A stretch of DNA of 12,099 nt from a virus (IMGVR_UViG_3300045988_023686:1-12099), one strand, 5' to 3'. Numbered from the stretch's first letter, positions 1 to 12,099 are shown. A program made the numbers and translations. The notes: generated by a model not told the origin, from the sequence alone.

Positions 1-22
1 AAAAGGTACACAAGGCACCCCA

Positions 23-61
23 TTTTAACATTTCCCAACAGGTTTTTAACATTTGCTAACA
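23..61. repeat. Direct repeat inside the ITR (two 18-nt copies, 21-nt register)
   Basis: TTTTAACATTTCCCAACA (23-40) and TTTTAACATTTGCTAACA (44-61) share 16 of 18 positions and are offset by 21 nt, about two helical turns. The pair is mirrored in the right ITR. Confidence 0.8.
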
Positions 62-103
62 CACTTTGGCACGCTTTTTGTTGCCGTGCCACAAGTACCA
101 CAA

Positions 104-148
104 TTAACAAGTATTAACACATTTAACACACCGTTAACACAGTTAATT
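104..148. repeat. Iteron-like array of TTAACA(C) units inside the ITR
   Basis: TTAACA starts at 104, 114, 123 and 134, and TTAATT at 143, giving spacings of 10, 9, 11 and 9 nt. Further TTAACA copies start at 25, 46, 211, 234, 244 and 313. The array is mirrored at about 11952-11996 in the right ITR. Confidence 0.7.
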
Positions 149-161
149 TTTCACAAAAGAA

Positions 162-204
162 ATGTTTCACGTGGAACAGTAAGAGCAGATGTTTCATGTG
201 AAAC
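162..204. promoter_or_regulatory. Two copies of the palindromic motif ATGTTTCA-NN-TG(G/A)AAC (candidate operator)
   Basis: ATGTTTCACGTGGAAC lies at 162-177 and ATGTTTCATGTGAAAC at 189-204. The arms GTTTCA and TGAAAC are inverted repeats around a 2-nt centre. Copy 1 lies in the ITR and recurs at 11923-11938. Copy 2 straddles the ITR boundary and is absent from the right end. Confidence 0.35.
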
Positions 205-256: not shown

Positions 257-288
257 TTTGGTGGATTTGCAAATTTGACGTATCTTTG
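257..288 (+). promoter_or_regulatory. Left-end promoter, Bacteroidota sigma-A type (-33 TTTG, -7 TAnnTTTG)
   Basis: TTTG at 257-260, a 20-nt spacer, then TATCTTTG at 281-288. The identical 10-mer TATCTTTGCA with the same 20-nt spacing occurs at 5060-5069 and, on the minus strand, at 11822-11831. It sits about 50 nt upstream of the first plus-strand ATG (337). Confidence 0.6.
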
Positions 289-336
289 CACCGTATTTTA
301 GAAACAATAAGTTTAACAATTTAAATTAGGTAAATT

Positions 337-504
337 ATGAACGAAAATTTTAATGAAATTATTTTTAACTGTGTTACAAGTGTTAACGCTTTGATGACTT
401 CTAACGAAGTAGCAAAAGATGACAAGGCGGTTATTAAGTTGAACCGCTTTAAGAAGTGGTTGAACGAATTCGCAGCAGCCAACGGTGTAACAGAAGTAAA
501 GTAA
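337..504 (+). CDS. Small hypothetical protein (55 aa), first gene of the left operon
   Basis: I translated this ORF by hand: ATG 337, TAA 502-504, MNENFNEIIFNCVTSVNALMTSNEVAKDDKAVIKLNRFKKWLNEFAAANGVTEVK. It falls below the length cutoff of the supplied ORF track. It is co-oriented with the downstream genes and directly follows the promoter. The listed antisense ORF 313..522 is probably its shadow. Confidence 0.5.
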   Translation: MNENFNEIIFNCVTSVNALMTSNEVAKDDKAVIKLNRFKKWLNEFAAANGVTEVK

Positions 505-548
505 CACCCCTACAGGTAACAAGAAGTTTAACGTTAAATATTTAAGTT

Positions 549-914
549 ATGGTTAAAGGTTTTAGTTTTGCAAGTAAGTTCAACAAAACAAGTTTCGGTA
601 TTGATACAACAGATTTTCCGTTTGTAAAGTTGACAGACATCTACAACAGTAAAAAGGACGGTGGCGATGATGTGGTGCACCCGATTAACGGTTTGTACGT
701 TCACAAATCCCCTTTGGGTGATTCGCCTGTAATTATTGACGCAGAAAACAAACGCTTGGTAAATTTGCCACAATTCACAGGCGACACAATTCGTGAAATT
801 TTGGCGGATAGTGAGGCGGTCGAAGCTATCAAGGCTAACAAGGTAGGTTACACAATTTATGAATACGATTCTCATGCGAAGAAGTGTTATGGTATTACCT
901 TTGTAGATAAGTAG
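549..914 (+). CDS. Hypothetical early protein (121 aa); speculative ssDNA/dsDNA-binding replication accessory protein
   Basis: The ORF is co-oriented, lies upstream of the terminal-protein candidate and polymerase, and is followed by a strong hairpin terminator. Its size and position resemble phi29 p5 and p6. I recognised no sequence motif. Confidence 0.75.
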   Translation: MVKGFSFASKFNKTSFGIDTTDFPFVKLTDIYNSKKDGGDDVVHPINGLYVHKSPLGDSPVIIDAENKRLVNLPQFTGDTIREILADSEAVEAIKANKVGYTIYEYDSHAKKCYGITFVDK

Positions 915-943
915 CGCAGTGTAGTGTAAAGGGTGATAATTTC

Positions 944-985
944 ACAGGGGTAACAGTATTTTTATTGTTATCCCTGTTTTTGTTT
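944..985 (+). terminator. Intrinsic terminator or attenuator within the left operon
   Basis: ACAGGGGTAACA (944-955) pairs with TGTTATCCCTGT (966-977) as a 12-bp stem containing one G-U pair. A 10-nt loop separates the arms, and TTTTTGTTT follows. Confidence 0.6.
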
Positions 986-1005
986 CATTTTAAATTAACA
1001 ATGTT

Positions 1006-1635
1006 ATGGCAAACAAAAATCCTATAGGCTTCAGTGGTCGAACATTTAAGGCAACGAAAAAAGCGCATGTAAAAAAAGAAATAATAAACGCCATTGAAAG
1101 TAGTAGCAGTTTACGAAAAGAAATTGCTAAAGTATTTCAACAGGCAAACAGACGTATACAGAATATAGAGAAAAATGGTGTTGTTTCTCCCGCAGTTGTT
1201 GCGTTAAATAAAGGTGATGTAAAAGGATATTCTAAATTTTCAATGAAACATGAATGGAGCGATTTAAAAATAGAATATTCAAAGGCTATAGCATTTTTGC
1301 AGCAGCCAACCTCAACCGCAACAGGTACGAATGAATACGCAAAACATTTAAAGAAAACTTATAAGTTATCAGATGATGAGTTTTCTTTAATGCAAGAAAA
1401 GTTAATAGGTAAGATTGCTAGCGTATCAGATCAAAAATTTTTGGAACAATACCTTATGCAATATAAAGACTTTACAGGCGAACTTGAACAGGACGCAAGG
1501 GACGTATCAGACCAAATCGAAAGTGACGCTATAAAAATAGCAGATAACTTACAAAATAGTATTGATAACGTTGGCGAAAAAGTCGAAGAAACAGTACAAA
1601 AAATATTGGATAGTTTTAAAGATTTCGGTTTATAA
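1006..1635 (+). CDS. Candidate terminal protein (replication primer), 209 aa
   Basis: It lies immediately upstream of the protein-primed polymerase, and its stop overlaps the polymerase start (TAATG at 1633-1637). The N-terminus is basic (KATKKAHVKKE) and the C-terminal third is strongly acidic and Ser-rich (ELEQDARDVSDQIESD...EKVEETVQ). This charge layout matches that of the phi29 terminal protein. The assignment rests on synteny and composition only. Confidence 0.5.
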   Translation: MANKNPIGFSGRTFKATKKAHVKKEIINAIESSSSLRKEIAKVFQQANRRIQNIEKNGVVSPAVVALNKGDVKGYSKFSMKHEWSDLKIEYSKAIAFLQQPTSTATGTNEYAKHLKKTYKLSDDEFSLMQEKLIGKIASVSDQKFLEQYLMQYKDFTGELEQDARDVSDQIESDAIKIADNLQNSIDNVGEKVEETVQKILDSFKDFGL

Positions 1636-3842
1636 TGAAAAAGATACCCTTTGAACTACATGCAGAAGTTTACACCCCAAAAGATATTGCAAAGGTTTTA
1701 TCTTTGGCGGTTAACGAAAAGAATTTTACAGGCAATAATAAGGGCGAAAAGTTCCTTAATGTGCCTGTGTCTTTCGATATTGAAACTACATCTTTCTATA
1801 GGGACGCAGACGGTGAAACATACAGTTATGACCGATATATAAAATTAGGCGGTAAAGACACAAAAATGGAAAAGTGTTCTTTAATGTATGTTTGGCAATT
1901 TGGAATAAACGGTTTTTGCATAATAGGTCGAACTTGGGACGAATTTATTAAAATGTTGTCTGAGATAGTAACTTTGCTAGATTTAAACCAAAAAAGACGT
2001 GTTATTATTTACGTTCACAATTTGGCTTATGAGTTTCAATTTATCCGTGAATTGTTACAATGGGAAAAAGTTTTCTCTATAGATTTACGCAAACCGATTT
2101 ACGGAATAACTAAAGACGGTTTAGAGTTTAGATGTAGTTACCTGTTATCGGGTTATTCGTTGGCAAAGTTGGGAGAACAGTTACACACTTACAAGTGTGA
2201 GAAATTAGTTGGCGATTTAGACTACAGTCTATTGCGTCACAGTCAAACACCGTTAACGCAAAAAGAAATTGGTTACTGTTTGAACGATATAAAAGTAGTT
2301 ATGTGTTATGTACAGGAATTAATAGAACGTTACAAGGGAATAACGAAATTACCTTTGACAAAAACAGGTTTTGTTCGTAAATATTGTCGTTCTGTATGCT
2401 TCAAGACAACTGACGAAACAGGCAAGACAACACCAAACTTTAAGTATTTCGATAAAATACACGATTTAAATATAACAGGTATCGAAGAATTTGAAATGTT
2501 GCAACGTGCTTTCTCGGGCGGCTTTACTCATGCAAATGCAAAGTATACTGACGAAGTTATGGAAAACGTAGATAGTTACGACTTTACAAGTAGTTACCCG
2601 TATGTTATGGTATCAGAAAAGTTTCCGATGAGCACAGGGGTTTTTGTTCCTGTTAAATCTATAAAACAGTTTGAATTTATGACTAACAAATTTTGTTGTG
2701 TCTTTGATATTGAGATAACAAACATTTTTGCTAAATCAGAAAACGAAAACCCCATATCGGTAAGTAAGTGTTTCGTGAAAGAAAATGTTTCTGAAAATAA
2801 CGGTCGTTTGGTTTGCGCTAGTAAAATATGTATGACTATAACAGAAATAGACTTTAAAGTCTTTTCGCAGTTTTATTCTTGGGAGCGTATACGAATAGGC
2901 AAAATGATTTGTTACAGAAAAGAGTATTTGCCGACTGAATTTGTGAAATCAATTTTGCACCTGTATGAAATGAAAACCAAACTAAAGGGTGTAAAGGGAA
3001 AAGAAGTTGAATACTTGAATAGCAAAGAAATGCTAAACAGTTGTTACGGTATGAGCGTCACAAACCCTTTGCGTGATGAGATTTTATGTGACGGTGAAAA
3101 TTGGGACGTGGAACACCTAACAGGCGAAAAACAGTTAGAAATGTTAAGCAAATACAACGACAGTAGAAACAGATTTCTTTTTTACCCTTGGGGTATTTAT
3201 GTAACGGCTTATGCAAGACGGAACCTATTTACAGGTATTTCAGAATGTGGGGACGACTATATATATAGTGATACCGATAGCGTTAAGATAATGAACGGTG
3301 ACGCACACAAAGAGTATTTCAAGCTATACAATGATTTAGCGCAACAGAAATTACGTGCTGCATGTAAGTTTCATAAAATACCCTTTGAAAAGGTTGAACC
3401 TGTAACGATAAAAGGAATAGCAAAACCGCTTGGTGTTTGGGATTATGAGGGACGATACAGACGTTTCAAAACTTTAGGCGCTAAAAGATACATGGTAGAA
3501 GAAGAAAATGCCCTTACTGTTAACGGTAAAAATTATGATTACAGTATGACAGTTTCGGGTGTTAACAAAAAATCTGCTATACCCTACATGTTAGAAACTT
3601 TCGGGGAAAAAGGTATCTTTGACGCTTTTACCAATTACTTAGACATACCGCCAACGGCAACAGGTAAGAATATTCATACATATATAGATTATGAGCAGAC
3701 AGGTACAATAAAAGACTATAAAGGGGTTATTTCAAGTTACGACACAGTAACAGGGGTACACTTAGAACCAACAGGTTATACACTTAGTCTTTCAGTACTT
3801 TATATAAATTATTTAATGGGAATAAGATTAAAAAAGGAATAA
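1635..3842 (+). CDS. Protein-primed family-B DNA polymerase (phi29 gp2-like), 735 aa
   Basis: All signature motifs are present and in order:
- Exo I: FDIETT (D48, E50; nt 1776).
- Exo II: YVHNLAYEFQF.
- Exo III: YCLNDIKV.
- Motif A: DFTSSYPYVM.
- Motif B: KEMLNSCYG.
- Motif C: YSDTDS (nt 3264-3281).
- KxY: GAKRYM.
Long stretches align with phi29 DNAP as I remember it, for example RAFSGGFT and PWGIYVTAYAR. Confidence 0.95.
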   Translation: MKKIPFELHAEVYTPKDIAKVLSLAVNEKNFTGNNKGEKFLNVPVSFDIETTSFYRDADGETYSYDRYIKLGGKDTKMEKCSLMYVWQFGINGFCIIGRTWDEFIKMLSEIVTLLDLNQKRRVIIYVHNLAYEFQFIRELLQWEKVFSIDLRKPIYGITKDGLEFRCSYLLSGYSLAKLGEQLHTYKCEKLVGDLDYSLLRHSQTPLTQKEIGYCLNDIKVVMCYVQELIERYKGITKLPLTKTGFVRKYCRSVCFKTTDETGKTTPNFKYFDKIHDLNITGIEEFEMLQRAFSGGFTHANAKYTDEVMENVDSYDFTSSYPYVMVSEKFPMSTGVFVPVKSIKQFEFMTNKFCCVFDIEITNIFAKSENENPISVSKCFVKENVSENNGRLVCASKICMTITEIDFKVFSQFYSWERIRIGKMICYRKEYLPTEFVKSILHLYEMKTKLKGVKGKEVEYLNSKEMLNSCYGMSVTNPLRDEILCDGENWDVEHLTGEKQLEMLSKYNDSRNRFLFYPWGIYVTAYARRNLFTGISECGDDYIYSDTDSVKIMNGDAHKEYFKLYNDLAQQKLRAACKFHKIPFEKVEPVTIKGIAKPLGVWDYEGRYRRFKTLGAKRYMVEEENALTVNGKNYDYSMTVSGVNKKSAIPYMLETFGEKGIFDAFTNYLDIPPTATGKNIHTYIDYEQTGTIKDYKGVISSYDTVTGVHLEPTGYTLSLSVLYINYLMGIRLKKE

Positions 3843-3843
3843 T

Positions 3844-4980
3844 ATGAAACAGAAAAAAGAAAAAGTGGAAACACCTAAATTTTACAGTTTAAGCCGCATT
3901 TTATCAAAAAATGCAGATTACAACGTGATTTTCGGTGAACGTTCAAACGGTAAAACTTATGCAACGTTACTGTATGGTATTAAAGAATATTTGCGCACAG
4001 GAAAACAAATGGCATATATTAGACGTTGGCGAGAAGATTTAAGGGGAAAACGTGCCGAAAGTTTATTTGCAAATCATGTGGCAAACGGTGTAATACAGGA
4101 ACTAACAGACGGTAAGTTTAACGAAGTGTTTTACGTTTCGGGTAAATGGTTTCTTTCGTCTTATGACCCCGAAACAAAGAAACGTGTACCCGATAACACA
4201 CCGTTTTGTTTCGGTTTCTGTTTATCAGAACAGGAACACGAAAAGTCAAGCAGTTACCCGAATATAACTACAGTTGTATTTGATGAGTTTTTAACTAGAA
4301 GATATTATTTGCCTGACGAATTCATGTTATATATGAACCTGTTAAGTACAATTATCAGACAGAGAAACGATGTTAAAGTTTTTATGTTAGGTAACACCGT
4401 TAATCAGTTTTGCCCTTATTTTACCGAAATGGGGTTGAAACAAGTGCGAGTGATGGAACAGGGAACTATTGATATTTACCGTTTCGGTGAGTACGGTGCT
4501 ACTGTTGCAGTAGAATATTGTAGTACTATTGTCAGGCATAAAGCTAGTAACAAATATTTCTGTTTCGATAATGAGAATTTGCAGATGATTACAGGCGGTA
4601 AATGGGAACTAGCAGCATATCCGCATTTGCCTGTAAAATACAAACCAAACGATGTGTTGTTTGTCTTCTATATTCAGTTTAACGAAATGACCCTACAGGG
4701 TAACGTGATACAGGTTGAGGACAAAACAGGGGTAAACAATTTTATATATATCCACAACAAAACAACACCGATTAAAGATACAGATAATAGTTTGATTTAT
4801 TCGCTGCAAATGAACGGCAAACCGAATTATAAAAGAAAGTTACTAAGTAACGCAAGTTATGTGGAGCAGCAAATAACAAAGTATTTCGCCACCGATAAGG
4901 TATTTTATCAGAATAACGAAATAGGTGAAATTGTGCGTAACTATTTAATGGCGAGTGCACGCAGTAACATAATTACTTAA
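3844..4980 (+). CDS. DNA packaging (encapsidation) ATPase, phi29 gp16-like, 378 aa
   Basis: Walker A is GERSNGKT (nt 3934-3957) and Walker B is TTVVFDEF (D147, E148; nt 4282-4287). The N-terminal block YNVIFGERSNGKTYA...GKQMAYIRRWREDL parallels phi29 gp16 FVIGARGIGKSYA...GEQFIYVRRYKPEL, as recalled from memory. Confidence 0.9.
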   Translation: MKQKKEKVETPKFYSLSRILSKNADYNVIFGERSNGKTYATLLYGIKEYLRTGKQMAYIRRWREDLRGKRAESLFANHVANGVIQELTDGKFNEVFYVSGKWFLSSYDPETKKRVPDNTPFCFGFCLSEQEHEKSSSYPNITTVVFDEFLTRRYYLPDEFMLYMNLLSTIIRQRNDVKVFMLGNTVNQFCPYFTEMGLKQVRVMEQGTIDIYRFGEYGATVAVEYCSTIVRHKASNKYFCFDNENLQMITGGKWELAAYPHLPVKYKPNDVLFVFYIQFNEMTLQGNVIQVEDKTGVNNFIYIHNKTTPIKDTDNSLIYSLQMNGKPNYKRKLLSNASYVEQQITKYFATDKVFYQNNEIGEIVRNYLMASARSNIIT

Positions 4981-4988
4981 TATCTGTT

Positions 4989-5045
4989 AACAGGGGTTAA
5001 AAATGTTTCACATGAAATAATTTTCCCCTGTTTTATTTGTTTTTA
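4989..5045 (+). terminator. Terminator of the left operon (long hairpin plus T-tract)
   Basis: AACAGGGG (4989-4996) pairs with CCCCTGTT (5025-5032). The 28-nt interior is itself largely self-complementary and contains the third copy of the palindrome. TTTTATTTGTTTTT follows the stem. Confidence 0.6.
5003..5018. promoter_or_regulatory. Third copy of the palindromic motif (ATGTTTCACATGAAAT)
   Basis: It has the same ATGTTTCA-NN-TGAAA core as 162-177 and 189-204. It is located 18 nt upstream of the -33 element of the late promoter. Confidence 0.35.
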
Positions 5046-5067
5046 CCAAATAAAAAAACTATCTTTG
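5036..5067 (+). promoter_or_regulatory. Late/structural operon promoter, Bacteroidota sigma-A type
   Basis: TTTG at 5036-5039, a 20-nt spacer, then TATCTTTG at 5060-5067, followed by CA as at the two terminal promoters. It lies about 30 nt upstream of ATG 5100. Confidence 0.6.
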
Positions 5068-5099
5068 CAGCATTAAATAACAAAGTTAAAATTTGCTAT

Positions 5100-5294
5100 A
5101 TGGACGTAAACGAAATTGCATCATTAATAAGTAACGTTGGTTTTCCTGTTACGGTTTGTATCGCCCTGTTTTTCTATATGGAAAAGCAGAACGAAAGACA
5201 TCAAAACGAAACCGACAAGTTAAACGAAACAGTACAAAGTAACACGAAAGTGTTAACAGAACTTTGTACCTTAATTAAAACACTAATTAAGTAA
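5100..5294 (+). CDS. Small membrane protein, YvrJ-like (64 aa); holin candidate
   Basis: I chose ATG 5100 instead of the track's TTG 5037, which would place the promoter inside the ORF. The protein has one N-terminal hydrophobic helix (ISNVGFPVTVCIALFFYM) followed by a charged coiled-coil-like tail. The LISNVGFP...Y pattern resembles the YvrJ family (PF12841), as recalled from memory. I saw no comparable transmembrane segment in any other protein in this window. Confidence 0.7.
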   Translation: MDVNEIASLISNVGFPVTVCIALFFYMEKQNERHQNETDKLNETVQSNTKVLTELCTLIKTLIK

Positions 5295-6344
5295 ATGAAA
5301 AAAGAAAACTTATATAACAGGTATCAAACAGAAGTTAAAGACAAAGATTCTGCATTATTTACATTTATGCAACGTATTCTTTGCATGACTTCTAAAATGT
5401 TTGAATACACAGGAACACCCGAAACTGTTCCACCTGTTGAACTTGAAAAGATTCTGCAAACATCGGGAAACGTTGGTATCGCAGAAGTTGACGGTAATTT
5501 GTATGCCTTACAGGGTTCAAGGGGTGGCGAGTGTGACGCTTACGGTTACGGAAAAGATTATGTTGTCGCAAATCCTTGGTTACAGTTGAACAAAACCTAT
5601 AAAATCGGTTCTGATATTGTAGTTATAAACAACACACCGTTTGCGGATTCGCTTTTGCCGATTATCGGAAAATATGGTGTTCTTTACACAGACGCAACAA
5701 TAACGCTTAATTTAGCTAGCATTTTAACACGTATTACAATGTTAATCTCTGCTAGCGATGACAAGACCAAACAGAGCGCAGAATTGTTTTTGCAGAAAAT
5801 TTTGAACGGTGATTTTTCTGTAATCGGTGAAAATGCCTTTTTCAAAGGTGTAAACTTACAGACCCCACCGACACAGGGAAACCAACAAATCGGGCAATTA
5901 ATTGAACTGTTGCAGTACTACAAAGCTAGCATGTTTAATGATTTGGGTTTGAATGCTAACTATAACATGAAACGTGAGCGGTTGAACACGCAAGAAGTTT
6001 CAATGAATATAGACGCTTTAATGCCTTTCGTGGATTCAATGCTAAAAGAACGTGTTGAGGGTGTGAAACGTGTTAACGAAATGTTCGGTACAGATATTAC
6101 GGTAACTTTGGGTTCAAGTTGGAAAATTGAACACGAAAATTATTTGTCGTTACTTCAAGCAACAGAAGACGGACACGACCACACCGAAACAGAAGACGTT
6201 CATCCTGTAACGGAAAACGAAACAGAAGAAACGCAAGAAACAGAAGAAACGGAAACAGAAACAGAAGAAACAGAAGAAACGGAAACGGAAACGCAAGAAA
6301 CAGAAGAAACAGAAGAAAAAGAAAACAAAGATGAGAATAAATGA
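5295..6344 (+). CDS. Portal / head-tail connector protein (phi29 gp10-like), 349 aa, with acidic E/T-repeat C-terminus
   Basis: Three blocks parallel phi29 gp10 as I remember it:
- MFEYTGTPETVPPVELEKILQTSGNVG vs [27 protein letters not shown].
- NMKRERLNTQEVSMN vs NLEKKERMVTDEVSSN.
- VNEMFGTDITVTL vs INELYGLNVKVKF. Confidence 0.85.
   Translation: MKKENLYNRYQTEVKDKDSALFTFMQRILCMTSKMFEYTGTPETVPPVELEKILQTSGNVGIAEVDGNLYALQGSRGGECDAYGYGKDYVVANPWLQLNKTYKIGSDIVVINNTPFADSLLPIIGKYGVLYTDATITLNLASILTRITMLISASDDKTKQSAELFLQKILNGDFSVIGENAFFKGVNLQTPPTQGNQQIGQLIELLQYYKASMFNDLGLNANYNMKRERLNTQEVSMNIDALMPFVDSMLKERVEGVKRVNEMFGTDITVTLGSSWKIEHENYLSLLQATEDGHDHTETEDVHPVTENETEETQETEETETETEETEETETETQETEETEEKENKDENK
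6186..6320 (+). repeat. In-frame imperfect tandem repeat (GAA ACR / GAA GAA ACR units) encoding the E/T-rich portal tail
   Basis: Reiterated gaaacagaagaaacg / gaaacggaaacg units translate to TETEDVHPVTENETEETQETEETETETEETEETETETQETEETEEKE. The complementary strand yields the F/C-rich artefact ORF 6150..6497. Confidence 0.9.
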
Positions 6345-6900
6345 ATTGTTCACAACTGAAAATGGGTTATTTGAAAAAATCTTTAAACCCCTGTTTCCTG
6401 TTTTGTACGATTCAATATTTGGGACAGATGACCCAAAAATAATTGATATTGATTTTCGTTTTAAATATGGGGACAGAACTTTTGTTAATGCTATCACAAA
6501 TGAAACTGTAAATGATATTGTAAAAAGTATTATTACAGTAAAGTTTGACGAATGGCAAAAACAGATTCAAGTGTTTAATAAAGAATATGACGTGTTAAGT
6601 CCTGTAACAGAAAAGACAACTGAAACGGTAAATAACACCGTGGACGAAACAGGGAATAACAATACAGTCGATTCAAGTGTAACGTTTAATAATGGAGATT
6701 TCGGAAATGACACAAAGCAACAAAGAGACTCTACAGGGAACAGACAAGAAACGGGTACGAAAACAGTTGTTAAAAACAGTTTGTCGGGTGGTTTTCCTGT
6801 TAGTGAAATTATTCAAAAAGAAATGAGTTTGCGCAAAACTAATTTCAAGATGCAAGTGATAGCAGAACTTGCGAAAGAGTTAACAGTAGATATTTATTAA
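6331..6900 (+). CDS. Hypothetical structural-module protein (189 aa); possible scaffolding protein
   Basis: The ORF overlaps the portal stop by 14 nt and lies between the portal and major capsid genes. It has an N/T/D-rich, low-complexity centre (TETVNNTVDETGNNNTVDSSVTFNNGDFGNDTKQQRDSTGNRQETG) and a predicted helical C-terminus. The function is inferred from position only. Confidence 0.7.
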   Translation: MRINELFTTENGLFEKIFKPLFPVLYDSIFGTDDPKIIDIDFRFKYGDRTFVNAITNETVNDIVKSIITVKFDEWQKQIQVFNKEYDVLSPVTEKTTETVNNTVDETGNNNTVDSSVTFNNGDFGNDTKQQRDSTGNRQETGTKTVVKNSLSGGFPVSEIIQKEMSLRKTNFKMQVIAELAKELTVDIY

Positions 6901-6920
6901 TTACTTAAATTTTTATAAAA

Positions 6921-8105
6921 ATGAATGTAAAACAGATTTATAGTTTAGTTAACACCGTATCGGGTGAGGTTTTGGGTAATACCGAGTTGGTACACGAAGA
7001 CCTTACAGGTTTAGTCGATTTGGGTAACGAAGTATTCAACCAAAACCAAGTTGACAATTATGTTAAATCACTTGTAAACCATATCGGTAAAGTGGTATTC
7101 GTAAACCGCCCTTATTCGGGTAAAGTTCCGAGTGTGCTTATGGACGCTTGGGAATTCGGTTCTGTATTGGAGAAAATCTCTGCTGATGTGCCCGATGCAG
7201 AAGAAAATGATACCTGGAACTTACAGGACGGTAAAGAGTACAAACAGGACGTTTTCTACAAACCGACTGTTTCCGCTAAGTTCTTTAACTCAAAGGTAAC
7301 TTTTGAGGTTCCTGTATCTATCACAGAAAGACAGGTAAAAGAAAGTTTCAGCAGCGCAGAACAAATGAACGGTTTTCTGTCAATGATTTACTCAGCAGTT
7401 GACAAGTCGATGACTATCAAGACAGATGCGCTCATTATGCGCACAATTAACAACATGATAGCTGAGACATTGGACGCAGACAAAACCGCTTTCGGTTTCG
7501 TACCGTCAACACACGAAACAGTTGACTATTCAACTGCTAGTACTGTTCGATGCGTTAACCTGTTGAAACTTTACAACGATAAGACAGGTGCTCATTTGAC
7601 CGCAGCCGCAGCGATAACAACACCCGACTTTATCCGTTTTGCGGCTTATGTTATGGGTTTGTATTCAGACCGTTTGCAGACAATTTCAACCCTGTTTAAC
7701 ATTGGCGGTAAGGAGCGATTCACACCGAAAGACGTTTTGCACACAGTTCTGTTGTCTGATTTCGCAGCCGCAGCAAAAGCATACCTGTATGCCGACACGT
7801 TCAATAGCGAGAATGTTCTGTTGCCACAGGCTGAGACAGTTGCAAGTTGGCAAGCAACAGGCAAAAATTATGCCTTTGAAAACACGTCAAAAATTGACGT
7901 AAAGAGTGCGAGCGGGGCAAACGTTTCTGTAAGCGGGGTGTTGGGTGTTATGTTTGACCGTGACGCTTTAGGTGTAACAAACCTTGATAAGCGTGTGACA
8001 ACCAACTACAACGCAAAAGCAGAGTTTTTCAACAACTATTACAAGTTTGATGCCGGTTACTTTAACGACACAAACGAAAACTTTGTTGTGTTCTTTGTTG
8101 CCTAA
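6921..8105 (+). CDS. Major capsid protein (phi29 gp8-like, HK97 fold), 394 aa
   Basis: Three blocks parallel phi29 gp8 as I remember it:
- DNYVKSLVNHIGKVVFV vs NDFITSLVDRIGLVVI.
- FLSMIYSAVDKSMTIKTDALIMRTINN vs [27 protein letters not shown].
- GVMFDRDALG vs AVLVDKDWF.
It is the largest non-tail structural ORF and is followed by a strong terminator. Confidence 0.8.
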   Translation: MNVKQIYSLVNTVSGEVLGNTELVHEDLTGLVDLGNEVFNQNQVDNYVKSLVNHIGKVVFVNRPYSGKVPSVLMDAWEFGSVLEKISADVPDAEENDTWNLQDGKEYKQDVFYKPTVSAKFFNSKVTFEVPVSITERQVKESFSSAEQMNGFLSMIYSAVDKSMTIKTDALIMRTINNMIAETLDADKTAFGFVPSTHETVDYSTASTVRCVNLLKLYNDKTGAHLTAAAAITTPDFIRFAAYVMGLYSDRLQTISTLFNIGGKERFTPKDVLHTVLLSDFAAAAKAYLYADTFNSENVLLPQAETVASWQATGKNYAFENTSKIDVKSASGANVSVSGVLGVMFDRDALGVTNLDKRVTTNYNAKAEFFNNYYKFDAGYFNDTNENFVVFFVA

Positions 8106-8136
8106 GTTTTGTTGTTTAATTGTTTAACTTTTGGTG

Positions 8137-8190
8137 AGGGTGCGTTTCCTGTAGTTGATAGCACAGGGCGCACCCTTTTAAAATTTTTGT
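8137..8190 (+). terminator. Intrinsic terminator after the capsid gene (probably leaky)
   Basis: AGGGTGCG (8137-8144) pairs with CGCACCCT (8169-8176), and an inner CCTGT/ACAGG helix extends the structure. TTTTAAAATTTTTG follows. I see no TAnnTTTG element before the next gene, so the tail genes would need read-through. Confidence 0.6.
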
Positions 8191-8193
8191 GGT

Positions 8194-8631
8194 ATGCTGA
8201 TAAAAACTTATAATTATAACGGTGAACCTAACAGGGTTAATAAGACGCTACAGGAAAACGAAGAATACACAGGTGTGCTAAATTCAACTGTAAACATATT
8301 AGAACCTGTTATCCGTTTCCGTACAACTAATATAGTAACGTTTAATTACGTTTATATAGAAAGTTTGAACCGTTACTATTTCGTTTCTGAGATACGACAA
8401 GACGGTGATATTTGCACGGTTTATTTGCGTACGGACGTTTTAATGACGTACAAAGATAAAATATTAGATTCTATAGGTACGTTAACAAAGGGTGCAAATG
8501 TAAATAAGTATGCGTCAAACCGTGAAAACGCTTACGATTTGCGCCCGAAACTGAAAAAGCTAGATTTCCCTAATAAAGGGTTATTTAGTGATAAAGATAA
8601 CATTATAATGGTAACTATTAAAGGTAATTAG
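8194..8631 (+). CDS. Tail protein, homologous to the N-terminal domain of the phi29 gp9 tail knob (145 aa)
   Basis: FNYVYIESLNRYYFVSEIRQDGDICTVYLRTDVLMTY parallels gp9 [41 protein letters not shown], as recalled from memory. The ORF ends at TAG 8629-8631, 2 nt before the next ORF. Confidence 0.7.
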   Translation: MLIKTYNYNGEPNRVNKTLQENEEYTGVLNSTVNILEPVIRFRTTNIVTFNYVYIESLNRYYFVSEIRQDGDICTVYLRTDVLMTYKDKILDSIGTLTKGANVNKYASNRENAYDLRPKLKKLDFPNKGLFSDKDNIIMVTIKGN

Positions 8632-8633
8632 TT

Positions 8634-10484
8634 ATGAGTATAGCAATTAAGGAATTTAACCTTTATGGTGCAAAGGCTAATTTTAAAACAAAGGGTTATG
8701 ACGTTATTTGTACTTTTACTCTGAATGCAAATACCGTTTGGAACGGTGAACCGTTTACACTTGAATTTAAAGATAATGACAGCCACTTTCACAATAAAAC
8801 CGTAAATGTTGAAACTGTAAAAGATAGCACGGAAACAATAATAGAAACGGTAAAAAATTACAATTATGCAAGCATGAGTGTTTCTGTTATCGGTTATTCT
8901 ACAACATACAATGGGGAACAGATAGTTATTGGTAATTTGGTAAACAATGTGCCACACAGTACGTTGGAACAAATGTACACAGGTGTAAATAGTGATGACG
9001 GAAAAAATGCGTGGACTAAAATAACATTAAAAGCTGATGACGGTTTTAAATTTGTTGAGGGGACATTAAAAAATGATAGTAATGTTGGGTTCAATTATTC
9101 TCACAATAATACAGTAGCACAACAATATGTTGGAACACCTTTAAATAACTTAAATATAGGGTTGATATTCACAGGTGAAACAGTAGCAAAGGAAACTGAG
9201 ATAATAAATAATATTACAGGTAATTGTGAGGAAACACACACCGTGGACGGTACAAACGTTTCTATAACTGTTACAGGTTATAGCGATTATGCAAAGTTTG
9301 TTGGGGTGTCTGTTGAGTATACCGATATTAACGGTGAACCGAAAACGTTTGTGCCCGATTTTTCGGAAAACGTTATAAATATATCATTAACTGATGTAAA
9401 ACCGGGCACAACGGTTACTTTGTCGGGTGCTTACCGTCTTGTTTGCACAACCGTTAATAATATGACAGGGTGCAACGTAACAGGGTTAAAACCTTATTAC
9501 ATCGAAAACGAAACTGTTAACGTTATCGCAACGGCAAATGGTAAAACTCATTTTGACGCTGAGAATTTACCTGTTGCTAATTGGGAACCGTTAACAGGTG
9601 GAGCAGAACAACACCCTTTTGTTCTGAGTAACAACGGTAAAACCGCAACATTAAATTTTACGTTTCCAAACGACAGAGAAAAAGTAAGTGATTCAACTTT
9701 TACCCTGTTAGGTGGAACAGTCCCCGATACAGAAGTAACAGGTTATGGTAGTATTAACGTTTATCTAGTAGACACAAAAACTTTAGATGATTTCTCAAAA
9801 ATTCGTTTCACTAAAAAGTTAAATGAAAATTACGAATATGAATATTATGATATTGGGAAATATGTGAACAGGTTACACAAAGTTTACGTGGACGTACCGA
9901 ATGTTTCCCCAACGTCTTTAAAGTTGGCTAACTTTGATACAAGTATTAATACAAATAGCGTTGACGATTCAAAGGTACACGTAGATTTCGGAAACGTGCT
10001 ATTACCTGTTAATTCTGATAGTGGAAACGATTTTAACGCTACTATACAATGTTTCATACCGTTTGTCGGTTTTGTACCTGTAGATAGTGATTTTATCGGA
10101 AAAGAACTAAATTTATGTTACGATATAGATTTAATTACAGGTTATTGTGCCTATAATTTATCATGTGACGGTATTACTATTAATAACGGTACGGCAAATT
10201 GTATCAGCGAAATTATTTATAAAACGTTGGCTAATGATGAGATAAGTACTATAGGGGATTTAAGCGATTTCAATACGGTTTTAATGGGGTTAGAACCTTA
10301 TATTACTATCAAGTACTTTGAACCGTTGAATGTTCCTGTAAATAACACCACCGAACAAAAACGTATTGGGGACGTTACAGGGTTTGCACAGTTTGAAAAC
10401 GTTAACTTGTCAACAAATAACACGATGTTAGTTGACGAATTTAATGAAATTGTTTCACAACTTGGAAACGGTGTTTATCTATAA
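8634..10484 (+). CDS. Tail knob / receptor-binding tail protein (616 aa): beta-rich N-terminal part plus gp9-like C-terminal part
   Basis: The C-terminal part parallels phi29 gp9 as I remember it: IPFVGFVPVDSDFIGKELNLCYDIDLITGYCAYNL vs [24 protein letters not shown]...VAYSV, and LVDEFNEIVSQLGNGVYL vs NDLQEIRTIFDNGITLW. The first 400 aa or so look like reiterated beta-sandwich modules, for example NVSITVTGYSDY...TTVTLSGAY and NVTGLKPYY...TLNFTFPND. Confidence 0.7.
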   Translation: MSIAIKEFNLYGAKANFKTKGYDVICTFTLNANTVWNGEPFTLEFKDNDSHFHNKTVNVETVKDSTETIIETVKNYNYASMSVSVIGYSTTYNGEQIVIGNLVNNVPHSTLEQMYTGVNSDDGKNAWTKITLKADDGFKFVEGTLKNDSNVGFNYSHNNTVAQQYVGTPLNNLNIGLIFTGETVAKETEIINNITGNCEETHTVDGTNVSITVTGYSDYAKFVGVSVEYTDINGEPKTFVPDFSENVINISLTDVKPGTTVTLSGAYRLVCTTVNNMTGCNVTGLKPYYIENETVNVIATANGKTHFDAENLPVANWEPLTGGAEQHPFVLSNNGKTATLNFTFPNDREKVSDSTFTLLGGTVPDTEVTGYGSINVYLVDTKTLDDFSKIRFTKKLNENYEYEYYDIGKYVNRLHKVYVDVPNVSPTSLKLANFDTSINTNSVDDSKVHVDFGNVLLPVNSDSGNDFNATIQCFIPFVGFVPVDSDFIGKELNLCYDIDLITGYCAYNLSCDGITINNGTANCISEIIYKTLANDEISTIGDLSDFNTVLMGLEPYITIKYFEPLNVPVNNTTEQKRIGDVTGFAQFENVNLSTNNTMLVDEFNEIVSQLGNGVYL

Positions 10485-10489
10485 ATAAA

Positions 10490-10522
10490 ACAGGCGGTAA
10501 AGTTGTTACCGCCTGTTTTTTT
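10490..10522. terminator. Bidirectional intrinsic terminator between the convergent operons
   Basis: ACAGGCGGTAA (10490-10500) pairs perfectly with TTACCGCCTGT (10506-10516) around a 5-nt loop. It is flanked by an A-run upstream (ATAAATAAAA) and a T-run downstream (TTTTTTTATTTTTT). Confidence 0.8.
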
Positions 10523-10769
10523 ATTTTTTATTAGAAAATTCATAAGCTAAACCTTTGCTACAAATAAAATCTAAAGCGCGGTTTTTCTTTGCCGTTTCTT
10601 CATCAAGTTTGCAAGAAATAGTTTTTATTACTAAGGTTTGCGCCTTTAATACCCCAATAACAGAATTTAATAACATGCCGTTTGTGCCTGTTGTTTCTTC
10701 TGCTATATTCTGCAAATTTTCTGTTGAAACTTTAATTGACTTCAACAAAATTTCTATTGTTTTTTCCAT
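10521..10769 (-). CDS. Hypothetical protein (82 aa), last gene of the right-end operon
   Basis: The ORF is co-oriented with the endolysin gene and starts 2 nt after its stop. I recognised no motif and no clear transmembrane segment. Confidence 0.6.
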   Translation of the reverse strand: MEKTIEILLKSIKVSTENLQNIAEETTGTNGMLLNSVIGVLKAQTLVIKTISCKLDEETAKKNRALDFICSKGLAYEFSNKK

Positions 10770-10771
10770 AA

Positions 10772-11194
10772 CTATTTCTTTTCTAGATTCATTATAACTT
10801 GTTGTCTTGGTTTACCGTTACGGTTACAGACCGAAACATGAAACCAAAAAGACGCAGACCCTTTACGGTGTTCTTTAATAAATTGGTCAAAACCGCCTGT
10901 TTCTCTTAGAACCTTTTCTAAGGTATTCATATCACTACAAACAACGTCAGCAGCTAAACCCTTTAAGTGTTGACTATTAGCCACACCACCAACGGCTTTA
11001 TTTAACACAGGACAACGGAAACCGCTATTAACTAAGATAGGTTTACCCAACTTTTCACGAATTTCGTCTAAGTAATCCGCTAAATGATTCAAGTTGTCAA
11101 CTACCTCAAAGGTAGGGGTGTTATCAATACCCAAACGTTTTGCGGTAGCTGAGTTAATGAACTCGGACAATGTAAAATACTTAATTCTTTTCAT
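10772..11194 (-). CDS. Endolysin, zinc peptidase of the M15 (LAS) family, Peptidase_M15_3-like, 140 aa
   Basis: The family core is SGFRCPVLNKAVGGVANSQHLKGLAADV, with H76-x6-D83 and a distal H119 (FWFHVS) as the zinc triad. The typical N-terminal FTLSEF motif is present. I see no signal peptide. Confidence 0.85.
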   Translation of the reverse strand: MKRIKYFTLSEFINSATAKRLGIDNTPTFEVVDNLNHLADYLDEIREKLGKPILVNSGFRCPVLNKAVGGVANSQHLKGLAADVVCSDMNTLEKVLRETGGFDQFIKEHRKGSASFWFHVSVCNRNGKPRQQVIMNLEKK

Positions 11195-11201
11195 ATCATT
11201 A

Positions 11202-11396
11202 TTATTTAGTTGAAATTACAAACCACTTTCTACTATCTTTGTGTGTCGGAAAACGACCCTTAACAGTTATTGAACAATCGCCCTGTAAGTAGTCGATTTT
11301 GTTGTTAAAGAATTCGCTTACCTTGTCAGAACGTACCATAAAAACCGTTTCTTTGTCGGTTTGTTTTAATGTGATTCTAAAATATGAATGTTCCAT
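11202..11396 (-). CDS. Hypothetical protein (64 aa)
   Basis: The ORF sits in series with its neighbours on the minus strand. I recognised no motif. Confidence 0.55.
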   Translation of the reverse strand: MEHSYFRITLKQTDKETVFMVRSDKVSEFFNNKIDYLQGDCSITVKGRFPTHKDSRKWFVISTK

Positions 11397-11412
11397 ATAT
11401 CAATTATTTTAA

Positions 11413-11438
11413 GCCTGTAAGGTGTTACCCTCACAGGC
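11413..11438 (-). terminator. Minus-strand hairpin between the 110-aa and 64-aa genes (weak attenuator candidate)
   Basis: The minus-strand RNA GCCUGUGAGG-GUAACA-CCUUACAGGC forms a 10-bp stem. Its one G-U pair is an A/C mismatch on the other strand, so the structure is strand-specific. Only a weak U-rich tract (UUAAAAUAAUU) follows. Confidence 0.3.
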
Positions 11439-11446
11439 GGTTAAAC

Positions 11447-11779
11447 TTATAAGATGTGTTCTGTTGTCTGTGTCAACTGTAAGAAAGAACTTGCGTCTTT
11501 TCCCAACTTGTTGCAAATCTGTGTAACGCAGCAGCCGAATTCGTTTATATATTGCAAACTATCTTTTGACTGATAACATGTGTATACGTCCTTTGTTAAC
11601 TTTGGTAAGGTGTTGTGCTTAATGCAGTTTACTTCATGCTGATACATAACCTTTGCCGCATCTTCAAAAGAAGAAACATCTGTTACTGTTTGCGTGCTTT
11701 GTGTTACTTCACTTTTAACACGTTTACCGTTAACTGATAAAACGGTTTCACACTCTAAAGTAATTTTATATGTTGCCAT
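11447..11779 (-). CDS. Hypothetical Cys-rich protein (110 aa), first gene of the right-end operon
   Basis: It is the first ATG after the right-end promoter. It contains six Cys, including the cluster GCCVTQIC. I recognised no family. Confidence 0.65.
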   Translation of the reverse strand: MATYKITLECETVLSVNGKRVKSEVTQSTQTVTDVSSFEDAAKVMYQHEVNCIKHNTLPKLTKDVYTCYQSKDSLQYINEFGCCVTQICNKLGKDASSFLQLTQTTEHIL

Positions 11780-11823
11780 ATTCTTGTATTTTAAAGGGTT
11801 TAACTAAATTTCTAAATCTGTTG

Positions 11824-11855
11824 CAAAGATACGCATTTTCCACGAAACCACCAAA
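11824..11855 (-). promoter_or_regulatory. Right-end promoter, Bacteroidota sigma-A type, facing inward
   Basis: On the minus strand: TTTG (complement of 11852-11855), a 20-nt spacer, then TATCTTTG (complement of 11824-11831), followed by CA. This is the mirror image of the left-end promoter. It lies about 45 nt upstream of ATG 11779. Confidence 0.6.
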
Positions 11856-11905
11856 TTATTTTTGTTAAATAATGTAAAAGTTTTAATTTAATTCTTTTTA
11901 ACAAT

Positions 11906-12099
11906 AAACATCTGCTCTTACTGTTCCACGTGAAACATTTCTTTTGTGAAAAATTAACTGTGTTAACGGTGTGTTAAATGTGTTAATACTTGTTAATTGT
12001 GGTACTTGTGGCACGGCAACAAAAAGCGTGCCAAAGTGTGTTAGCAAATGTTAAAAACCTGTTGGGAAATGTTAAAATGGGGTGCCTTGTGTACCTTTT
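11906..12099. repeat. Right inverted terminal repeat (genome terminus)
   Basis: Exact reverse complement of nt 1-194. The window ends precisely at the end of the repeat (...CCTTTT-3'). Confidence 0.97.

Follow-up and report, generated by a model that had tools for sequence, protein, structure and literature searches.

Introduction

What is the short element that begins at position 5036 of this gut phage genome, and which bacterium would read it? The window analysed here, by which we mean the whole stretch of 12,099 bases, comes from a small gut phage (12.1 kb, GC 35%), and the same element recurs close to each end. The original prediction took the three copies for identical Bacteroidota-type promoters and, together with a lack of Shine-Dalgarno (SD) sites, for a sign that a phi29-like phage has a non-Firmicutes host.

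The traits described for Bacteroidetes are a -33/-7 promoter consensus with the -7 element refined to TAHHTTTG, a transcription start ~5 nt after the -7 element, no SD, and an enrichment of A at -14 to -11, especially at -13 and -12, that is characteristic of the group (PMC6847099). Absence of SD alone is not host-specific, because a subset of Cyanobacteria also lacks it (PMC6847099). The RpoD of green sulfur bacteria groups with Bacteroidetes RpoD and recognises a related motif (bioRxiv 10.1101/172254).

Results

A complete phi29-like genome related to Astrithrvirus

The window is a complete linear phi29-like genome, in which 15 ORFs cover 91% of the sequence and 9.2% is non-coding (Table 1). 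Its identification as a phi29-like phage is well founded, with a protein-primed DNA polymerase (PolB), a gp16-type packaging ATPase, a gp10-type connector, a Phi29-type capsid protein (MCP) and inverted terminal repeats all present. When one end is aligned with the other, positions 1-194 match perfectly, the remainder matches at ~80-86% with one 12-nt indel, and weaker homology reaches to ~300. The 209-aa ORF upstream of the polymerase gave no family match in Pfam or PHROG; because it is syntenic with and 29% identical to astrithr gp02, it likely encodes the terminal protein. The genes for the 145-aa and 616-aa proteins are read here as a split tail knob, following PMC11476376, and over its C-terminal half the 616-aa protein shares 24-26% identity with the Salmonella-phage (Astrid/assan) counterparts. 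No RNA polymerase gene is found among the 15 ORFs. The small ORFs, considered as possible regulator genes, returned nothing from Pfam (permissive thresholds included) or PHROG. The tRNA and Rfam scans of the window were empty, and no Rfam match to a packaging RNA (pRNA) appeared at E <= 1, a feature that is not established for the Gram-negative branch either. At the end of the connector gene (6180-6330), imperfect 9-, 21- and 30-nt repeats of the ACAGAAGAAAC type encode an acidic, Glu/Thr-rich low-complexity tail; one relative (L086) has another repeat (GGGAACGGAC-like) at the same place, indicating that the tail varies between relatives.

A megablast of the whole genome against 50,697 phage records found no nucleotide-level similarity to any phage, Astrithrvirus astrithr included. 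MCP identity to the closest isolates is 56-59% (58% to astrithr) and polymerase identity to astrithr is 46%; as judged from sequence, the relationship to Astrithrvirus is above genus level only. Two statements of the original prediction have to be given up at this point, namely that characterised phi29-like phages all infect Firmicutes and their relatives and that a Bacteroidota member would extend the host range of the lineage. The closest isolates infect Gram-negative bacteria (Acinetobacter, Salmonella, Pectobacterium, Enterobacter, Shigella and Vibrio), and a 2024 review lists Gram-negative hosts of phi29-like phages and suggests a Bacteroidales host for 'Bacteriophage sp. 2692_55609' (PMC11476376), so that a Bacteroidota member would fill in a known range.

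Searched by capsid protein, IMG/VR yielded 351 relatives, 80 of which were fetched; nearly all of these are complete at ~12 kb, with 79-98% identity. The polymerase falls into a 90% cluster of 4,681 members. Many Logan assemblies of the clade end at ~5.6-6.2 kb, roughly half the genome, which suggests a recurrent assembly break inside it.

Table 1 Features of the 12,099-base window
Feature	Position	Strand	Remarks
Left inverted terminal repeat	1-203		99% complementary to 11897-12099
Palindromic site TTTCACGTGGAA	165-176		~95-125 nt upstream of P_L
Palindromic site TTTCATGTGAAA	192-203		~95-125 nt upstream of P_L
P_L, putative left promoter	257-290	+	-33 TTTG 257-260; -7 TATCTTTG 281-288
Left unit, overall	337-4980	+	Genes downstream of P_L
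Small ORF	337-504	+	Left unit
Small ORF	549-914	+	Left unit
Terminal-protein candidate, 209 aa	1006-1635	+	Synteny and 29% identity to astrithr gp02, E = 3e-9
Protein-primed PolB	1635-3842	+	PF03175 E = 4e-16; phrog_1907 E = 4e-70
gp16-type packaging ATPase	3844-4980	+	PF05894 E = 1e-22
Intrinsic-terminator-like hairpin and T-run	4989-5045 (hairpin 4989-5032)	+	T-run overlaps P_M -33
Palindromic site TTTCACATGAAA	5006-5017		Terminator loop; centred ~60 nt upstream of the inferred P_M start site
P_M, putative internal promoter	5036-5069	+	-33 5036-5039; -7 TATCTTTG 5060-5067
Middle unit, overall	5100-10484	+	Genes downstream of P_M
Holin-like protein	5100-5294	+	Pfam/PHROG family matches
gp10-type connector	5295-6344	+	PF05352 E = 9e-15
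ORF	6331-6900	+	Middle unit
Phi29-type MCP	6921-8105	+	PF25622 E = 2e-52
145-aa protein	8194-8631	+	Candidate half of split tail knob
616-aa protein	8634-10484	+	Candidate split tail knob; C-terminal half resembles Astrid/assan counterpart
Bidirectional terminator hairpin	10487-10519		14-bp stem, T-runs on both sides; between convergent middle (+) and right (-) units
Right unit, overall	10521-11779	-	ORFs of 110 aa, 64 aa and 82 aa plus endolysin
M15 peptidase endolysin	10772-11194	-	Peptidase_M15_3 E = 1e-22; PHROG endolysin E = 9e-39
P_R, putative right promoter	11822-11855	-	-33 11855-11852; -7 TATCTTTG 11831-11824
Right inverted terminal repeat	11897-12099		203-nt repeat with the left end, 99% identity
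Mirror copy of palindromic site	11924-11935		Right end

Three sites match the Bacteroidota-type promoter consensus

A scan for TTTG-N18-22-TATCTTTGCA found exactly three sites in the window, all in the form TTTG-N20-TATCTTTGCA, as the original prediction had stated for one minus-strand and two plus-strand positions; none of 200 dinucleotide-preserving shuffles contained a match. The generic Bacteroidota consensus TTTG-N19-21-TANNTTTG returned the same three sites against 0.69 expected, a number reached by 2 of 200 shuffles. Since the -7 octamer TANNTTTG alone is not enriched genome-wide (29 matches vs 21 expected), only the full two-element pattern is informative. All three sites combine a -33 TTTG, a -7 TATCTTTG and a 20-nt gap, in agreement with the claimed match to the Bacteroidota primary sigma consensus. 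They lie in the non-coding part of the genome, each oriented toward the downstream genes, and the motif ends 46, 30 and 42 nt before the first ATG (at 337, 5100 and 11779), within the 30-50 nt that had been given. Following the published rule (PMC6847099), transcription would start at ~293 for P_L, ~5072 for P_M and ~11819 for P_R, with inferred leaders of ~44, ~28 and ~40 nt.

The wording 'three identical promoters' needs to be narrowed, since the sameness is limited to the TTTG and TATCTTTGCA cores and the 20-nt spacers differ among the sites. Moreover, P_L and P_R are both contained in the inner, diverged portion of the inverted terminal repeat, where homology extends to ~300. Owing to this shared ancestry, the terminal copies are not independent and represent one element seen twice.

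We also considered the sigma-70 consensus, whose matches in the window are not enriched (37 vs 39.9 expected). Read in this way, the three elements become TTGGTG-17-TATCTT, a weak match of 7/12 (3/6 + 4/6). Because this weak match exists as well, the geometry of the element alone does not discriminate between sigma types; the feature that sets it apart from sigma-70, as far as sequence can tell, is the invariant TTTGCA. No other promoter candidates were found in the window by the sigma-70 and Bacteroidota consensus scans. The leader of P_M contains an antisense TAACTTTG at 5081-5088 (-), and antisense copies are present near 5040-5140 (-) in seven relatives (L032, L046, L061, L062, L068, L069 and L073), completing a full -33/-7 match in several. 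Transcription from such an antisense match would be divergent, heading back into the terminator and into the end of the ATPase gene.

Arrangement of the putative transcription units

The hairpin upstream of P_M has a folding energy of -17.2 kcal/mol (z-score -3.9), and 59 relatives preserve its stem despite sequence differences, with compensatory changes in 4 of 8 pairs. A terminator placed directly upstream of P_M implies that one transcription unit ends and another begins there. As its 15 ORFs include no RNA polymerase, the genome must carry host promoters somewhere. We conclude that the three elements are putative promoters for three units, to be read by the host RNA polymerase.

In the proposed scheme, P_L and P_R would face inward from just inside the terminal repeats. 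P_L would drive small ORFs together with the replication and packaging genes, P_M, after the intrinsic terminator, would drive the holin, head and tail genes, and P_R would drive the endolysin gene and three small ORFs, two before and one after it. All three would depend on a Bacteroidota-type primary sigma factor that recognises -33 TTTG / -7 TAnnTTTG. Translation would then start independently of SD pairing, on leaders rich in A/T that carry A at -13/-12, which is also the Bacteroidota pattern.

The two putative promoter blocks are conserved among relatives

The P_L site is present in 71/81, the P_M site in 76/81 and the P_R site in 70/81 related genomes. Across these genomes there are 212 distinct promoter sequences, and the gap from TTTG to TA is 20 nt in 212 of 220 sites. 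For 59 relatives, the P_M intergenic region was aligned on coding-sequence anchors and not on the motif. In such motif-independent alignments, little or no change is seen in the -33 block TTTTATTTGGT and the -7 block TATCTTTGCA (conservation of at least 90%), the 17 nt between them vary freely, and the -7 TATCTTTG is invariant in all 59. Two conserved blocks around a free spacer point to a two-element promoter. The extended form ATTTGGT...TATCTTTGCAnC is kept in hundreds of variants.

A subclade with 44% GC retains the TAnnTTTGCA -7 element and the SD-less state; the strict -33 TTTG is missing there. In the same subclade (L079 at 1157-1226 and 8389-8468, and the equivalents in L085 and L086), the octamer TAACTTTG directly precedes two hairpins, one after the third small ORF and one after the capsid gene. 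In the window, hairpins lie at 944-977 and 8129-8181, and the octamer is absent from both places.

A palindrome accompanies the putative promoters

The palindromic pattern TTYCAYRTGRAA (core CACGTG) has four matches in the window against 0.02 expected. Sites of the TTTCACGTGAAA type occupy the same places in nearly all relatives (L001-L080): two or three copies lie ~80-125 nt upstream of each terminal promoter and one lies in the terminator loop. They also occur in four further genomes (L095, L107, L111 and L113). Because the palindrome is shared with SD-using distant relatives, its probable ligand is a phage-encoded protein, either a regulator or an end-binding protein, and not a host factor, although this assignment is speculative.

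The terminal repeat between 25 and 150, and its right-end mirror, contain reiterated TTAACA(C) units and a conserved CTTTGGCACG(C/G)TTTTTG element, which is duplicated in L079 and L107. Both may be origin or terminal-protein recognition features.

Genes of the window lack SD sites and carry A at -13 and -12

SD use was scored by how strongly positions -20 to -4 pair with the tail of the 16S rRNA, and a gene was counted as SD-like at -4 kcal/mol or lower. The mean anti-SD duplex energy of the 15 window genes is -0.77 kcal/mol, compared with -0.90 at random positions. Only one gene scores as SD-like, by an AAGGA before 3844 (-5.6 kcal/mol) that lies inside the end of the polymerase gene, and the claim that the genome has no SD sites therefore stands. 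At this junction (3829-3846) the polymerase stop and the ATPase start overlap closely (TAATATG), which suggests translational coupling of the two genes.

The Bacteroides fragilis phage B40-8, used as a control, gave a mean of -1.08, with 5 of 46 genes at -4 or lower. Two phages of similar GC content gave far stronger pairing, namely Salmonella astrithr (mean -6.3; 14/15 genes) and Acinetobacter Phanie (mean -7.1; 11/13 genes). The window genes carry A at -13 in 14/15 cases (93%) and at -12 in 13/15 (87%), against 43% in the whole upstream region; in B40-8, A makes up 65% at -13/-12. Over -14 to -11, the frequency of A is 0.73 in the window and 0.66 in B40-8, compared with 0.33 in both astrithr and Phanie. 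When 111 genomes (the phage family and B40-8) were compared, 90 were SD-less with A(-13,-12) = 0.78 and 21 were SD-using with 0.36. All relatives whose capsid identity is 67% or higher are SD-less.

The promoters follow the same division. Intergenic regions of B40-8 hold four full-consensus -33/-7 promoter matches. At the end-proximal, inward-facing positions, SD-using Phanie has TTGACA-17-TATAAT (12/12) and TTGACA-16-TATACT, and another SD-using genome (L095) has a 12/12 sigma-70 promoter at the equivalent terminal position, where the best the window offers is 9/12. Thus, promoter type, SD use and upstream A switch together across the phage family.

A Bacteroidota host is the best reading of the signals

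A phage of this size has to rely on the signals of its host, so that a bacterium of the Bacteroidota is its most likely host, and we regard this best reading as quite probable. A Bacteroidota-type host explains the data best because the -33/-7 promoter, the lack of SD and the A at -13/-12 match B40-8 and differ from the collinear proteobacterial relatives. The explanation as a whole, which joins host promoters, SD-less initiation and a Bacteroidota host, appears probable. Within the phylum, the host is probably one of the gut Bacteroidales. The predicted non-Firmicutes, Bacteroidota host is partly supported, in that three host-tuned signals agree with B40-8; as to the host itself, which is inferred, the nearest MAG-binned relatives carry the Gastranaerophilales label. 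Homologue searches with the endolysin and the 616-aa protein for prophage or cellular relatives returned only clade members on contigs of ~12 kb, and no phages of Bacteroidota hosts were found among the capsid relatives in the phage collection. Literature on Gastranaerophilales phages, Melainabacteria SD usage and gut surveys of terminal-repeat phages contained no host assignment for the clade.

The MAG labels could mean that the elements are indeed host promoters, but of Gastranaerophilales (Melainabacteria, non-photosynthetic relatives of Cyanobacteria) that have Bacteroidota-like signals. The two nearest binned relatives (L083 and L084, 90-91% MCP identity) come from two independent studies and both sit in Melainabacteria/Gastranaerophilales MAGs, QHMG01 and CAAGHI01; they have the same promoters and no SD, and the phage GC of 35% is near the 33% implied by the name of one MAG. 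A lack of SD would also fit, as it does for the subset of Cyanobacteria mentioned above (PMC6847099). We nevertheless consider this account unlikely. The bins of SD-less relatives, among species-representative genomes, range over Melainabacteria, Gastranaerophilales, Prevotella, Scatosoma, Staphylococcaceae, Tissierella and Christensenellaceae; Prevotella holds only one such relative, and others fall partly in Firmicutes bins. These labels are mutually inconsistent and are scattered across the SD-less clade in step with GC content, as composition-based binning would give. Since several of the bins are SD-dependent Firmicutes and must be wrong, the simplest reading is composition-driven binning of a free phage contig. 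The labels thus count as weak evidence, although a pair of independent Gastranaerophilales bins is not negligible. Primary sigma factors of Cyanobacteria recognise TATAAT-type -10 boxes, which may also hold for Gastranaerophilales. Moreover, relatives with sigma-70 hosts have perfect TTGACA/TATAAT promoters, whereas this clade holds TATCTTTGCA invariant, and the clade is extremely prevalent, as the size of its polymerase cluster attests. That the bins are right and the host is a Gastranaerophilales bacterium is thus quite improbable in our estimate. If it were so, these would be the first phages assigned to Gastranaerophilales, and the combination of TTTG/TAnnTTTG with SD-less initiation and A at -13 would not be exclusive to the Bacteroidota-Chlorobi lineage.

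It is decidedly unlikely that the likeness to Bacteroidota is coincidental and the host belongs to another lineage, be it Firmicutes, Proteobacteria or another SD-poor gut group. Apart from the relatives in Firmicutes bins, two ENA megahit contigs of 16.8 and 15.2 kb (L116, 1-1347, and L118, 1-1440) join the phage left end to low-GC cellular genes with SD, including GNAT acetyltransferases and FtsX, and these are the only phage-cell junctions seen. The joins fall at two different positions inside the terminal repeat (~24 and ~115 of the window) next to unrelated SD-using genes, a pattern typical of chimeric assembly, and we rejected these contigs as probable chimeras. Furthermore, the Firmicutes and Proteobacteria phages of the family use SD in 70-95% of genes and have TATAAT promoters, and the M15 peptidoglycan peptidase speaks against wall-less hosts. 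A different doubt concerns the element itself, which might be bound by a phage protein or belong to a replication origin, being conserved through the terminal repeat, and not act as a promoter for a host sigma factor. Two of the three copies do lie inside the extended terminal repeat, and the separate conserved palindrome beside all three indicates that phage-specific DNA sites exist there. Yet the third copy stands well inside the genome, 5 kb from each end, after a terminator and before late genes; all copies aim into gene blocks at promoter-like distances; and the conserved blocks with their free 17-nt spacer form a two-element promoter pattern. In SD-using relatives, canonical sigma-70 promoters occupy the equivalent places, and a genome of 15 ORFs with no RNA polymerase needs host promoters, for which no other candidates were found. 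A function other than that of a promoter is therefore highly improbable, and promoters read by a Bacteroidota host are the reading that we carry forward.

Discussion

By its sequence, the window belongs to an Astrithrvirus-related, uncultured and very abundant gut clade with Bacteroidota-type regulatory signals. In the protein collection searched, the clade is among the small phage groups assembled most often; it has no cultured member, and the tools applied in this analysis assigned it no host. The host reading from the three signals gives a target for isolation, namely Bacteroides, Phocaeicola or Prevotella. A helper phage may have to be supplied as well: Phanie reportedly becomes infectious only once it has bound to the tail of a helper myophage (PMC11476376), and the clade studied here might share this dependence. 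Should the host be confirmed, no smaller tailed phages would be known for Bacteroidota. The 34-bp promoter, strong-looking and very well conserved, could serve as a genetic part in Bacteroides. The result leaves unchanged both the known promoter types and the host breadth of phi29-like phages, in which Gram-negative bacteria are already included; it provides an example of host-tuned signals switching within one phage family.

Comparison with known systems

Like the window, Bacteriophage sp. 2692_55609 (cluster 30, PMC11476376) is phi29-like and ~12 kb long; it comes from human faeces, and for it, too, a host among the Bacteroidales has been proposed. It belongs to a separate lineage, with 42.5% GC and a reported relationship to Amedibacillus phages, and the proposal of its host drew on protein homology instead of regulatory signals (PMC11476376). 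No record of its length appeared among the MCP matches.

Astrithrvirus and its allies (Salmonella astrithr/Astrid, Acinetobacter Phanie and Pectobacterium DU_PP_III) share with the window a size of 11-12 kb, inverted terminal repeats, a collinear gene order, a tail knob split in two genes, and inward-facing promoters ~200-300 nt from each end. In contrast to the window, they use SD and TTGACA/TATAAT promoters, they lack the intergenic gap and promoter between the ATPase gene and the small gene after it, and their endolysin is encoded on the plus strand, not on the minus strand.

The regulatory programme of Bacillus phage phi29 comprises early end-proximal promoters, a late internal promoter and the regulators p4 and p6. 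The window is similar in its protein-primed linear genome, in the placement of its putative promoters near the ends and, for structural and lysis genes, internally, and in its expected use of the host polymerase. Unlike those of phi29, its three promoters share a single consensus; a p4 or p6 homologue and a pRNA were undetected in the window by Pfam, PHROG and Rfam, and the candidate regulatory site is a CACGTG-type palindrome.

Compared with the sigma-ABfr promoters of Bacteroidota, the elements of the window, which would depend on the same type of sigma factor, are more uniform than chromosomal promoters. They are alike in their composition: the -7 TATCTTTG fits TAHHTTTG, the -33 TTTG stands across a 20-nt gap, and the genes downstream are leadered.
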